DNA of 64,000 nt from Escherichia coli (GTDB taxonomy: Bacteria; Pseudomonadota; Gammaproteobacteria; Enterobacterales; Enterobacteriaceae): the NCBI RefSeq assembly GCF_013315695.1, contig NZ_CP054356.1, one strand, 5' to 3'. Positions 59,616-63,933 of this stretch are shown piece by piece (the first letter of the stretch is position 1; each line of letters starts with the position of its first letter). Both the position numbers and the translations under genes were made by a program. A model generated the notes under the pieces. That model searched no databases, was not told the origin of the DNA, and was given only the letters and a program-made list of their open reading frames with translations.

Positions 59616-60173
59616 ATGACAGAGCAGAAGCGACCGGTACTGACACTGAAGCGGAAAACGGAAGGGGAGACGCCTGTCCGCAGGCGGAAAACCATCATCA
59701 ATGTCACCACGCCACCAAAGTGGAAGGTGAAAAAGCAGAAGCTGGCCGAGAAAGCAGCCCGGGAAGCGGAGCTGGCGGCAAAAAAAGCGCAGGCCAGACA
59801 GGCGCTGTCCATTTATCTGACGCTGCCCTCGCTGGATGAGGCGGTGAACACTCTGAAACCCTGGTGGCCGGGATTGTTTGACGGTAACACGCCCAGGCTT
59901 CTTGCCTGTGGTATCCGGGAGGTTTTACTGGATGAGGTGTTTCAGCGGAATATCCCGCTCTCTCATAAAAAACTCAGCCGGGCGCTGAAAGCTATCACCC
60001 GTTCGGAAAGTTATCTGTGTGCAATGAAAGCCGGCGCCTGCCGCTATGATACGGAAGGCTATGTGACAGAACATATCACACAGGAAGAAGAACAGTATGC
60101 GCAGGCGCGCCTGGAAAAGGTGCGCAGACAGAACCGGATCAAGGATGAGCTGCGGGCGATCCTGGCGGAATAA
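59616..60173 (+). CDS. finO: Fertility inhibition RNA chaperone FinO (apparently intact)
   Basis: 185 aa basic protein [59 protein letters not shown].. Confidence 0.92.
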
Positions 60174-60324: not shown

Positions 60325-60528
60325 ATGGCTGTATCCAGTGGATTATCTGAGCACAGCGGTATTTATCGCTATCAGCGCGTGGGGCGTCATGCCGTCCGTC
60401 AGGAGATTCGTGGTTTTTTCAGGGAAGCCGCTGAGGCCTGGCAGAATGCGGCCCGGCTGGCACCCTGTGAAGCATGGCGGGATTTTGCCCTGAAGAGGGC
60501 ATCTGCATGCCGGTGTAAGTGCCGATAA
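60325..60528 (+). CDS. Hypothetical small protein (67 aa)
   Basis: ORF with RBS AGAGGGGGGA; no family assigned. Confidence 0.35.
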   Translation: MAVSSGLSEHSGIYRYQRVGRHAVRQEIRGFFREAAEAWQNAARLAPCEAWRDFALKRASACRCKCR

Positions 60529-61269
60529 AAATAACCCCCGTCGCGGAGCTCCGGGGGATCAGGCTTATATGGCAGATCGTTATTATTATAGTGGTGTAAG
60601 AAGGAGTTGCCCTGTCTTTCAAACGGACATCACAGAGTTAACATATTTCACATCCCGGGTAAGCCAGCAGGGATAAAAAATGTGATGAATTTCAAGAAGC
60701 AGAAGGTGACAGTAGCATGCATAACAGTACGGTTATGTCCGGTGAATCTGACAGACAGCCGGGCTGTATTCGCGGCAGGATAAAGAAAAACCGGGAGATG
60801 ACTCTCCCGGTCCGTCTTATCGCTAATCCCCTGAGCAGGGCATGTATGACTTATCTATGACCGTTATATTCAGCGCCACATCCGGTAGCCTGCGATATAA
60901 CACAGTTATCCTATCAGTAAGAGCAGGTATGATGAATACACGGAGATTAAAAATATAATCTCCGTCACATGTTACCCCCGGAAACCGGTAACGCCGTCAC
61001 GGGAAATACGTGACAGAAAAAGCAGCCTCCGTTACTCCAGGTATCAGAAGGCTGAATAATGCATGAGACTTTGTTTCTTATGTGTCTGGTCAGGCTGGCT
61101 GACCAGCGTTTTTAGTAACACATAGCCATATGTGTATTAAGCCACCTCATCTTATTTTGTCGAATTGATCACAATTCAACGGTTTATTTTTGGCGTGATA
61201 CGTGAGCCGTTATTCATCCCGGCATGGAATTCATGCAATCACGAAAAGTAATCAGTGACGGAGAGTAAA

Positions 61270-61731
61270 ATGAAGAAATATATACCAGTGGTATTATTTG
61301 TTTTTTCATGTCAGGTATTTTCTGCTGATATTCATGGACGGGTTGTGCGTGTTCTGGATGGTGATACCATTGACGTCATGTTATCTCAGCATCCGGTGCG
61401 TGTCCGTCTTGTTAATATTGATGCACCTGAAAAGAAACAGGACTATGGCCGGTGGTCTGAAAAAATAATGAAATCTCTGATTGCGGGAAAAACGGTTACT
61501 GTCACATATTTTCAGCGAGATCGTTATGGTCGTATTCTCGGGCAGGTTTATGCACCAGACGGAATGAATGTTAATCATTTTATGGTCCGTGCAGGCGCTG
61601 CATGGGTTTATGAGCAGTACAACACCGATCCTGTTCTTCCCGTCCTGCAGGGAGAAGCACGACAGCAGAAACGTGGTCTGTGGGCAGACAGCGCTCCTGT
61701 TCCGCCCTGGGTATGGCGCTCACGGAAATAA
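61270..61731 (+). CDS. nuc: Secreted thermonuclease-family (SNase-like) endonuclease
   Basis: Signal peptide MKKYIPVVLFVFSCQVFSA; motifs VRVLDGDTIDV, VRLVNIDAPE, RYGRILGQV, GLW typical of SNase fold. Confidence 0.85.
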   Translation: MKKYIPVVLFVFSCQVFSADIHGRVVRVLDGDTIDVMLSQHPVRVRLVNIDAPEKKQDYGRWSEKIMKSLIAGKTVTVTYFQRDRYGRILGQVYAPDGMNVNHFMVRAGAAWVYEQYNTDPVLPVLQGEARQQKRGLWADSAPVPPWVWRSRK

Positions 61732-61818
61732 TGATATTTCTGTGGCTATTGAGTTCTCATTGAAATGCGATATTTAAAAGCATGAAGCATATTACATTAT
61801 TAACTTATTTCTCTGTTA

Positions 61819-62218
61819 ATGAAAGGTGAACAAATGAACTATCAGGCAGTATCAGAATTAATCACATCGTCTAATCATAATGTTCTTATAGTGTGGGACT
61901 CAGCTTCTGAAGTTGATGGTTTTTTAAATAAACTGAATATCACTGATTATAAGTATTATGATTTCAGCCAGATTTACAGTTGTTCTGACAGAACATTAAA
62001 TGATTATGCGGTTATTTTTTATCAGGGATGCACTGAACGCCAGTGAGCATATTATTATTTTAAATTGTACAGGATGGCCTGATTTGAATAATGAATCTGC
62101 CGTCATGCAGTTTGCCAGAGTGGCACGAAAATCAGGAAAACAACTGATAGTCGCAGTAAGAGAACAGGATATGAAAAAAATGGAAGCAGAGTCTGGAAGG
62201 ATCATAAAAATCCACTGA
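61819..62218 (+). pseudogene. Frameshifted paralog of ORF 62371-62808 (two overlapping ORF fragments 61819-62046 and 62000-62218)
   Basis: Fragment 1 aligns to N-terminal half and fragment 2 to C-terminal half of the intact paralog (..SEHIIILNCTGWPDLNNESAVMQFARVARKSGKQLIVAV..); frame change near T-run around 62020. Confidence 0.6.
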
Positions 62219-62370
62219 CGCCTTCGCGTTGCTCAGTTGTCCAACCCCGGGGACGGGAAAAAGCAAGTTTTCCCCGTCCCCGGCGTTTCTGAATAAAAAC
62301 CGGGAAATGGTGGCACAGGGGGAAAGCCGGAACCACCTGTATCCAGATTTTATCTCATAATGGTGAATAT

Positions 62371-62808
62371 ATGAAATATGATGATGTGTCAGAATTGATG
62401 ATTAAATGTGAACACAACATTCTTATTGTTGGTAATACTTACTCCCGAGTTGATAATTTTTTTAAGGGGTATTCTGTACCAGATTCTAAATATTATGATT
62501 TCACTCAGATTAACAGTGATTCAGATGCAGAGAGAAATGATCATGCCGTCTCCTTTATCAGGGATGCAATGAATAGTGAAGAGCATATAATTATTTTTAA
62601 TTGTGTTGGGTGGCCTGATTTAGGTGGTGGATCAGCAGTATCGCAGTTTGCAATGATGGCCAGAAAATTTGGTAAACAACTTATTGTCGCTGTAAGTGAA
62701 AAGGATGCCATAAAATTAAAAGACAACTTTAATATTATTGGAACGTTGTCATATGGTAAAGAAAATTTTATTGCCATGAGCCATACGAAAAGCGAGTTCT
62801 GTAGTTAA
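62371..62808 (+). CDS. Hypothetical protein (145 aa), intact paralog of the upstream frameshifted gene
   Basis: ORF with conserved ..IIIFNCVGWPDLGGGSAVSQFAMMARKFGKQLIVAV.. core; AT-rich. Confidence 0.6.
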   Translation: MKYDDVSELMIKCEHNILIVGNTYSRVDNFFKGYSVPDSKYYDFTQINSDSDAERNDHAVSFIRDAMNSEEHIIIFNCVGWPDLGGGSAVSQFAMMARKFGKQLIVAVSEKDAIKLKDNFNIIGTLSYGKENFIAMSHTKSEFCS

Positions 62809-62950
62809 AAGCGGGAAATGGAGGTAATGGTCAGCAACAGGGAATGTGGTATTATCGCGGCGGGTGTCTGAGCCTTTCTGGTTCAGGCAAGACGCAGGTA
62901 CCAGAAATGCGAAGACCCCACTTGTTAATCCATTAACTCGTGAGGCCTGC

Positions 62951-63010
62951 ATGAAGTACGTAGCACTACTGATTGTAGCCTCTTCCTTGCAGAGAGGTCA
63001 AAGTTTATGA
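62951..63010 (+). CDS. pndC/mok-like leader reading frame (19 aa) translationally coupled to toxin gene
   Basis: ATG 62951; stop TGA overlaps toxin ATG (ATGA); architecture as in pnd/srnB loci. Confidence 0.5.
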   Translation: MKYVALLIVASSLQRGQSL

Positions 63011-63156
63011 CGAAATATACCCTTATCGGGTTGCTCGCCGTGTGCGCCACGGTGTTGTGTTTTTCACTGATATTCAGGGAACGGTTATGTGAGCTGAATA
63101 TTCACAGGGGAAATACAGTGGTGCAGGTAACTCTGGCCTACGAAGCACGGAAGTAA
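63007..63156 (+). CDS. pndA: Hok-family toxin PndA/SrnB-like, 49 aa; below ORF-track size cut-off
   Basis: Translation MTKYTLIGLLAVCATVLCFSLIFRERLCELNIHRGNTVVQVTLAYEARK; matches recalled PndA/SrnB core. Confidence 0.88.
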   Translation: MTKYTLIGLLAVCATVLCFSLIFRERLCELNIHRGNTVVQVTLAYEARK

Positions 63157-63440: not shown

Positions 63441-63698
63441 ATGTCGCAGACAGTAAATGCAGAGACTTCCTCATCGGGAAAAAAACGACCTTACAGAAGG
63501 GGTAATCCTGTTCCTGCGAGAGAACGACAAAAAGCGTCTCTTGCAAGAAGGAGTGCCACTCATAAAGCGTTTCATGCCGTCATTCAGCTTCGACTGAAAG
63601 AAAAGTTAAGTGAGCTTGCTGATGAAGACGGGATCACTCAGGCACAGATGCTTGAGTGGCTGATAGAGTCAGAGGTTAAGCGCAGAAAATCTTTGTGA
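63441..63698 (+). CDS. copB: RepFII copy-number repressor CopB (RepA2)
   Basis: 85 aa [37 protein letters not shown].. resembles recalled CopB/RepA2. Confidence 0.85.
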
Positions 63699-63792: not shown

Positions 63793-63885
63793 ACTGGTTC
63801 TGATGTGGATTTACAGGAGCCAGAAAAGCAAAAACCCCGATAATCTTCTTCAACTTTGGCGAGTACGAAAAGATTACCGGGGCCC
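63793..63885 (-). ncRNA. copA: CopA antisense RNA of RepFII replicon (approximate)
   Basis: Target stem-loop on plus strand CCCCGATAATCTTCTTCAACTTTGGCGAGTACGAAAAGATTACCGGGG in repA leader; boundaries approximate. Confidence 0.5.
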
Positions 63886-63933
63886 ACTTAAACCGTATAG
63901 CCAACAATTCAGCTATGCGGGGAGTATAGTTAT

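Follow-up and report, generated by a model that had tools for sequence, protein, structure and literature searches.

Introduction

Between the finO gene and the hok/repA2 region of an IncF resistance plasmid of Escherichia coli lie two small adjacent AT-rich genes, which raise the question of what kind of protein they encode, why the upstream gene is broken and how the two came to stand side by side. We addressed this question in a stretch of 64,000 nucleotides from contig NZ_CP054356.1 (assembly GCF_013315695.1), which as a whole is referred to below as the window, starting from a preliminary description of the pair (copy 1 upstream, copy 2 downstream) that had been made from the sequence without database searches. 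The explanation that we favor, with a probability of roughly 0.7, is that the two copies are diverged alleles of a Walker-dead branch of a family of mini P-loop proteins, that they were placed in tandem by recombination, that copy 1 is a pseudogene and that copy 2 would be an accessory protein that works by binding.

Results

Structure of the two genes

Copy 2 is an intact open reading frame (ORF) of 145 amino acids on the plus strand (62371-62808; WP_000872609.1), and a Shine-Dalgarno (SD) sequence, GGTGA, is located 4 nt before its ATG. Copy 1 lies on the same strand and is interrupted. Its 5' part (61834-62046) passes through a run of six T residues (T6; 62015-62020) and ends at a premature TGA (62044-62046), while its 3' part continues in the +1 frame (62021-62218; IRDALNASEHIIILNCTGWPDL...IKIH*), where the Prokaryotic Genome Annotation Pipeline (PGAP) places an ORF of 72 amino acids (62000-62218; WP_023150739.1). 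The start of copy 1 is most likely the ATG at 61834, and not the upstream in-frame ATG at 61819, because PGAP starts intact alleles (WP_001109264.1 of plasmid pPA45B, 127 amino acids) at the equivalent ATG; an SD sequence, AAGGTGA, is present at 61823-61829. Intact alleles have five T residues (T5) at the run that carries the +1 insertion here, and taking one T out of 62015-62020 gave a single copy 1 ORF of 127 amino acids. The repaired copy 1 was 58% identical to copy 2 across 117 residues (BLASTP E 7e-48), and the core EHIII(L/F)NC(T/V)GWPDL..SAV.QFA..ARK.GKQLIVAV was common to both.

These results confirmed what the preliminary description had reported of two adjacent paralogs, an upstream copy frameshifted at the T-run and this very core motif. 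Its estimate of about 145 amino acids for each gene applied to copy 2 alone, as the intact copy 1 type has 127 amino acids and its break is a single-base insertion in T5, and the "conserved glycine motif" that it had pointed out (GGGS) was not kept between the copies, copy 1 having NNES instead. A hidden Markov model (HMM) of the family matched both halves of copy 1 (E 1.8e-19 and 8e-26), and a scan of the six-frame translation of the window with the same model found no copies beyond these two.

Family membership, fold and loss of the Walker motifs

Scans of both window proteins against Pfam, NCBIfam, PHROGs and PADLOC returned nothing meaningful. A word-indexed search of 5.8 billion proteins recovered close relatives only, from Escherichia, Shigella, Citrobacter and one metagenome, all of them labeled "hypothetical protein" and many truncated. 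When a 10-sequence profile was run with hmmsearch against 1.84 billion representatives, 47 proteins were retrieved, among them proteins of 140-165 amino acids with 18-29% identity in which both Walker motifs are canonical (A, ILVxGxTGxGKS; B, TLILD); one family protein, P0066, was reached at E 5e-15. The clade that contains the window proteins and that is found near finO on IncF plasmids (the IncF clade below) aligned with 14 Walker-intact members over 131 columns with a probability of 99.6% (HHalign, E 6e-24). The AlphaFold2 (AF2) model of the intact copy, built from a 21-sequence alignment, had a core of beta-alpha repeats (predicted local distance difference test score, pLDDT, 80.2; predicted template modeling score, pTM, 0.78), and Foldseek comparison with AFDB50 gave family members alone, some labeled "ATP-binding protein", ahead of generic P-loop proteins. 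The predicted fold is that of the additional strand, catalytic glutamate (ASCE) division: three alpha/beta layers with a central parallel sheet that can be superposed on RecA, AAA+ and ABC cores. The HMM search and structure prediction that the preliminary description had recommended for the intact copy thus led to P-loop relatives. Because the Walker-intact relatives, the HHalign alignment, the AF2 model and the Foldseek matches agree, the window proteins are assigned, on homology and predicted structure, to an unnamed and undescribed plasmid family of stand-alone mini P-loop nucleoside triphosphatases (NTPases) of about 150 amino acids.

Members of this family consist of a single domain of about 130-180 amino acids with the motifs SKY(Y/F)DF and ARKxGK(R/Q)LIV. 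Across 21 family sequences, Y41, F44, K102 and I105 were invariant and D43, E71, K99 and S88 nearly so. Pfam models matched the Walker-intact members only as generic P-loop models and via the Walker A region, and in sequence searches of the PDB a profile of the IncF clade had no match and a mixed profile matched P-loop-local stretches only.

The nucleotide-binding motifs themselves have been replaced in the window proteins. In place of the Walker A signature GxxxxGK[ST], which is GxTGxGK[ST] in the relatives, copy 2 has GNTYSRVD (G21-D28) and copy 1 has WDSASEVD; in place of a Walker B strand of the form hhhhD/E, which is LILD in the relatives, copy 2 has IIIFN77C and copy 1 has IIILNC. Throughout the IncF clade, Walker A is replaced by GN(T/S)xSx(V/I)D, with the Lys changed to Val or Ile and the Ser/Thr to Asp, and Walker B is replaced by IIFN, with the Asp changed to Asn. 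Binding and hydrolysis of nucleoside triphosphates (NTPs) have very probably been lost in this clade. The clade has invariant motifs of its own (RDA.N, NC.GW.D and ARK..KQLIVAV), and 41 columns are invariant within it, among them NC(V/T)GW and S25/D28 of the replaced Walker regions. The earlier suggestion of a small Rossmann-like nucleotide-handling domain was therefore right in spirit with regard to the fold, given the P-loop ancestry, and not supported with regard to nucleotide handling by the window proteins, whose Walker residues are replaced.

Genomic context of the relatives

Every family context examined carries type IV secretion system (T4SS), type IV coupling protein (T4CP), relaxase or Rep genes and thus belongs to a conjugative element; PLSDB records were typed as conjugative in 715 of 797 cases (copy 2 matches) and in 722 of 741. 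On IncI2 plasmids the Walker-intact relative is encoded between the T4CP gene and pilN, and on IncI-gamma/K plasmids it is annotated "YfdA". Others lie between a PilQ-like ATPase gene and pilR in an IncI-like type IVb pilus cluster, between virB2 and virB3 of a Rep3 plasmid, and between traU and trbC of about 280 IncF plasmids. In IncF plasmid pRHB42-C02_2, an unannotated 150-amino-acid ORF follows the traU-trbC mini-ATPase gene (locus L019, 5450-5902), and the two resemble an inserted two-gene cassette. The IncI2 relative of pAH59-40 (locus L017, 4935-5471) is a stand-alone P-loop protein of 178 amino acids with no DNA-binding or regulatory domain. Labels given to the IncI2 proteins are "ATP-binding protein", "YfdA protein" or "sigma 54-interacting transcriptional regulator", the last of which is probably a misannotation from a P-loop-local match. 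In the literature we found no paper that mentions the protein accessions or characterizes the family and none that pairs "yfdA" with IncI2; the F-plasmid "yfdA" of a 2026 preprint is a leading-region locus marker only, with no link to this family, and an F-like comparative-genomics paper and an IncX3 deletion study contained nothing that could be tied to it.

On IncX-like backbones, Walker-intact relatives are encoded directly upstream of topoisomerase III (topB) genes, with SNase, PcfJ, SprT-like, Hha, H-NS and DUF2726 genes nearby. The stop codon of the relative and the start codon of topB overlap by 4 nt (ATGA or GTGA) in three loci (L013, 958-1446/1443-3668; L023, 6001-6459/6456-8624; L024, 3290-3748/3745-5913), an arrangement suggestive of translational coupling and of a functional connection with TopB.

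The Walker-degenerate IncF clade was always found in the finO-to-hok/repA2 interval of IncFII-type replicons, and IncF plasmids from Citrobacter and from a metagenome have proteins of 58-62% identity at this same finO-to-repA2 position. All family members are AT-rich (27-39% GC) compared to their surroundings in every plasmid context, and copy 1 and copy 2, at a GC content of 0.34-0.35 versus about 0.60 in traI, are no exception. Because this composition is found family-wide, it is a trait of the family and not a sign of recent arrival; the low GC content noted in the preliminary description was correct, and the recent acquisition deduced from it was not supported, in view of this trait and of the conserved position of the 58-62% identical proteins.

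Selection and proposed function

The ratio of nonsynonymous to synonymous substitution rates (dN/dS) was 0.2-0.4 within and between the copy 1 and copy 2 types, and for this reason the gene has probably encoded a functional protein over evolutionary time. According to the proposed scenario, both types would derive from the stand-alone P-loop NTPases of about 150 amino acids on Enterobacterales conjugative plasmids, and the IncF clade would have lost its catalytic motifs while the family motifs (SKYYDF, RDAxN and ARKxGKQLIVAV) were kept under purifying selection. Because these motifs are conserved under such selection while the catalytic residues are gone, intact copy 2 may act through binding, without NTP hydrolysis; the kept strand and helix motifs would fit a retained partner interface. 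Most likely, copy 2 is an accessory protein of the plasmid, dispensable and without catalytic activity, and it might serve as a small accessory or adaptor for the plasmid transfer or DNA-processing machinery. From the contexts of the active relatives, candidate partners are T4SS or type IV pilus (T4P) ATPases, coupling proteins and topoisomerase III.

Several points weigh against this interpretation. The binding or adaptor role and the link to transfer are inferred only, from motif loss together with conservation, and the literature search gave no experimental information on any family member; with respect to function, sequence alone supports no strong claim. The dN/dS values internal to the copy 1 type are based on very few substitutions. 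Of the 797 PLSDB records with copy 2, 346 (about 43%) were partial matches, many of which retain just residues 77-144, and many database proteins of the family are fragments as well. Because decay is this frequent, selection is weak or conditional and the genes could be close to neutral. Finally, a promoter and terminator scan at the locus gave nothing beyond shuffled expectation. Taken to its end, this line of argument says that neither copy has a function any longer and that both drift, as relics of a mini-ATPase that was once active, in a variable AT-rich region silenced by H-NS, and the loss of the catalytic motifs, the inactivation of copy 1 in several independent ways, the many partial matches and fragments and the expression signals no better than chance all speak for it. 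We regard this as unlikely, though of all the alternatives it survives best, since the dN/dS values of 0.2-0.4 hold across dS values of up to about 1.5, the 41 invariant columns of the degenerate clade take in the replaced Walker regions, intact ORFs hold their place even where the plasmid proteins share only 58-62% identity, and both genes have good SD sequences. Our conclusion is that the gene is conditionally useful and readily lost.

A variation on the binding role is that the Walker-dead IncF proteins keep a partner-binding surface and cannot cycle NTP, so that they would act as decoys or in a dominant-negative manner, either modulating, from their place beside finO, transfer of their own plasmid or hindering other plasmids in the same cell (IncI2, IncX or further IncF types) in which the active mini-ATPase serves a T4SS, T4P or topB module. 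We consider this improbable; if true, it would amount to a new protein-based form of fertility inhibition or plasmid competition and would provide a first function for the active mini-ATPase family.

The preliminary description had also raised the idea that the proteins confer immunity to, or inhibit, the secreted thermonuclease whose gene (SNase family; 61255-61731, plus strand) lies directly upstream of copy 1. The genes do stand directly downstream of the SNase-family gene in many IncF plasmids, and an SNase gene is found two genes upstream of the intact relative in L023 and L024. Most relatives, however, have no nuclease neighbor: none is adjacent in loci L005, L010, L011, L017-L020 and L022, the nuclease-free contexts include IncI2 and the IncF traU-trbC site, and in L003 the nuclease gene is separated from the family gene by hha and a DUF2726 gene. 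In addition, the nuclease has a signal peptide and would be exported, whereas the window proteins have none, and an ancestry from P-loop NTPases also argues against an immunity function, which leaves this idea with very little to recommend it.

Origin of the frameshift

The status of the T-run was examined by probing PLSDB with 71-72-nt sequences centered on it; counts were taken from identity bands, and T-run lengths were directly confirmed only in a few fetched loci. Copy 1-type DNA was present in 226 PLSDB plasmid records, with an exact match to the T6 probe in 43 and to the T5 probe in 72, and about 100 further, more diverged copy 1 alleles were of T5 length, as inferred from the few fetched loci. 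Among RefSeq complete E. coli genomes the region was present in 192 of 5,426, and the exact T6 sequence occurred in 49 records. The majority copy 1 allele is therefore T5 with a single 127-amino-acid ORF. Plasmid pPA45B, for example, has the same tandem pair at 99.75% DNA identity with T5 and an intact upstream gene of 127 amino acids, and pFHI_NMBU_11_02 and pSTEC2018_607-c each have an intact copy 1-type gene alone. T6 derivatives, on the other hand, have decayed further. pA1705-NDM carries a T6-derived T7 plus a substitution, and in pMTY10008_IncF (locus L002, 2545-2883), which shares the T6 background, 46 bp between short GGATG repeats have been deleted and the frame is thereby restored, the product being annotated as a "hypothetical protein" of 112 amino acids that lacks the central core strand (IRDALNASEHIIILNCTG). 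Plasmid pRHB24-C04_2 has T5, yet a different frameshift further upstream. Because the records listed from a 2-kb search were 99.9-100% identical, the T6 plasmids appear to be one clone.

Overall, copy 1 in this plasmid is a recent, ordinary pseudogene that arose when one T was inserted into a T5 run in a single plasmid lineage. Given the T5 majority and the further decay of the T6 derivatives, it is neither a programmed slip nor an assembly error. The preliminary description had offered a pseudogene or a slippery site, and the first of these was right; the frameshift, whose conservation in related plasmids it had proposed to check, is not conserved, T6 being present in 43 of the 226 records. 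For the T-run to be a programmed +1 ribosomal frameshift, a site of transcriptional slippage or a phase-variable switch controlling full-length copy 1, re-pairing of the P-site tRNA-Phe from UUU to UUU inside U6 is conceivable, and T5, T6 and T7 alleles were all found. We nevertheless hold such control to be highly implausible. A two-frame organization or slippery site of the prfB, dnaX or IS3 type was not found as a conserved trait among the 226 PLSDB records, most of which have the single-ORF T5 allele, and the apparently clonal T6 lineage goes on to pick up lesions, including the loss of the core strand. The 0-frame A-site codon at the T-run is an ordinary UAU, neither a stop nor a rare codon, no SD-like stimulator was seen upstream (by eye only), and a run of 5-7 T residues is shorter than typical contingency tracts. 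The least credible possibility is that T6 is a homopolymer sequencing or assembly error in a plasmid with one intact ORF, for even though long-read assemblies commonly carry single-base homopolymer errors, a 6-base run is short for a systematic error, the identical T6 recurs in dozens of independent assemblies from many laboratories (the 43 PLSDB and 49 complete-genome records), and the 46-bp deletion allele is back in frame only given a T6 background.

Origin of the tandem pair

Between copy 1 and copy 2, dS was about 1.4-1.5 and dN about 0.37. A recent in situ duplication was ruled out by this dS of about 1.5 and by the mosaic structure of the region; the copies represent two allelic types, long diverged, of a single small plasmid gene and now stand side by side. 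BLAST comparison showed that window positions 61200-62313 match plasmids holding only the copy 1 type (97%), that 62215-62798 match plasmids holding only the copy 2 type (about 90%), and that both single-copy plasmid types match again from 62797. In the single copy 2 plasmids the gene is preceded by hha together with either a DUF2726 gene (L003) or a primase-like gene (L005). The overlap of the two matches (62215-62313) is a GC-rich hairpin segment of the plasmid backbone that joins the copy 1 and copy 2 modules, with the hairpin itself at 62247-62283 on the plus strand (CCGGGGACGGGAAAA...TTTTCCCCGTCCCCGG; 15-16 bp, no U-tail, z = -2.0). Thousands of IncF plasmids contain this segment of about 100 bp (62213-62313), which occurs in over 5,000 plasmid records, often just downstream of DUF2726 genes, and appears to be a recombination junction for alternative gene cassettes upstream of hok. 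The most economical explanation of the tandem is recombination between a copy 1-type and a copy 2-type plasmid at the shared hairpin segment. Against this account stands an alternative history, in which the tandem pair is ancestral and the single-copy plasmids arose from it by later deletion.

The copy 2 module is flanked on both sides by an imperfect direct repeat of about 28 bp, whose upstream copy (tttctgaataaaaaccgggaaatggtgg; 62286-62313) and downstream copy (ttctgtagttaaaagcgggaaatggagg; 62797-62824), both on the plus strand, are matched by the same sequence of locus L007 (2805-2832). Copy 2 ends with ..SEFCS* inside the downstream repeat, which takes in its final codons and its stop (62806-62808). 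Copy 2-type genes of single-copy plasmids extend 4-12 codons further (..SELTGGKRR..; compare L003, 3087-3168), and because 82 bp present in single-copy plasmids are missing from the window, the C-terminus of copy 2 was formed by the junction. Protein P0031 (145 amino acids; E. coli contigs of up to 112 kb) is of the copy 1 type in its N-terminal 75 residues and of the copy 2 type in the remainder; its gene is evidently an intact one left by unequal recombination that collapsed tandem copies.

Features of the surrounding locus

The pair is embedded in the classical IncF backbone that forms the end of the window, in which all genes from traI through repA2 are on the plus strand. traI, traX and finO (59616-60173) are followed by a small conserved ORF (60325-60528) and the thermonuclease gene. 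Downstream of copy 2 are hok/sok (Rfam match to sok at 62862-63017; Hok ORF at 63007-63156) and repA2/copB (63441-63698), with CopA RNA on the minus strand at 63826-63916. In the gap between the small ORF and the thermonuclease gene there is an Rfam match on the minus strand (60951-61093) to AS-pc02 (RF02876, "antisense to pHK01_099"; 53.5 bits versus a gathering score of 40). A 2-kb query spanning the locus matched many E. coli IncF plasmids at 100% identity, and the whole arrangement was present in 86 PLSDB records.

Discussion

The frameshift that first drew attention to this locus is in itself ordinary, as it marks a recent pseudogene paralog in a variable plasmid region. Of wider interest is the family to which both copies are assigned, namely an unnamed P-loop family of about 150 amino acids, for which neither Pfam nor NCBIfam has a model, encoded within the transfer modules of IncI2, IncF and IncX-like plasmids or beside them, and present on hundreds of sequenced plasmids. 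IncI2 is the kind of plasmid that carries mcr-1. The finO-proximal genes of IncF plasmids appear, judging from motif loss and dN/dS, to form a branch of this family that has lost catalysis and yet remains under purifying selection. A joint look at active and dead forms could bring to light an accessory step in conjugation or in the processing of plasmid DNA, for which the coupling to topB is a concrete lead.

Comparison with known systems

BrxF, the small ATPase of BREX systems (158 positions in the PADLOC models), is similar in size to the family, and the Walker-intact relatives gave weak, near full-length and sub-threshold profile matches to it (P0068, E 0.0024; IncI2 YfdA, E 0.0058). Identity with BrxF was rejected, as the window proteins had no match, none of the relatives' stretches passed, and BREX genes were absent from every context. 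VakA was also considered, and its similarity to the relatives was too weak to use. Catalytically dead RecA-like proteins such as Elp4/5/6 and the Rad51 paralogs offer an analogy only, with no homology beyond the superfamily, and this analysis gave no evidence of ring or hetero-oligomer formation of their kind.

With respect to structure, the best matches to the AF2 model were ASCE P-loop NTPases of the RecA/DnaB/KaiC type (T7 gp4 helicase domain, 1cr0; KaiC, 8dba; archaellum FlaH, 4yds; PH0284, 2dr3), at only 8-13% identity and with nucleotide-binding motifs that are absent from the window proteins; ABC and AAA+ ATPases scored nearly as high, so that the class within ASCE is not secure. The closest known systems are the Walker-intact mini-ATPases of plasmids, all uncharacterized, which comprise "YfdA" of R721/IncI2 (WP_001220543.1 and WP_015387353.1), the IncF traU-trbC "ATP-binding protein" (QMA90631.1) and the ORFs upstream of topB on IncX-like plasmids. 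The window proteins resemble them in full-length homology, size, predicted fold, AT-richness and the motifs SKY(Y/F)DF and ARKxGK(R/Q)LIV, and both groups are always found on conjugative Enterobacterales plasmids. They differ from them in that Walker A has lost its Lys and Ser/Thr and Walker B its Asp, and in that the window genes lie outside the transfer operon, between finO and the nuclease gene on one side and hok/repA2 on the other, whereas the Walker-intact genes are part of T4SS or T4P operons or precede topB.

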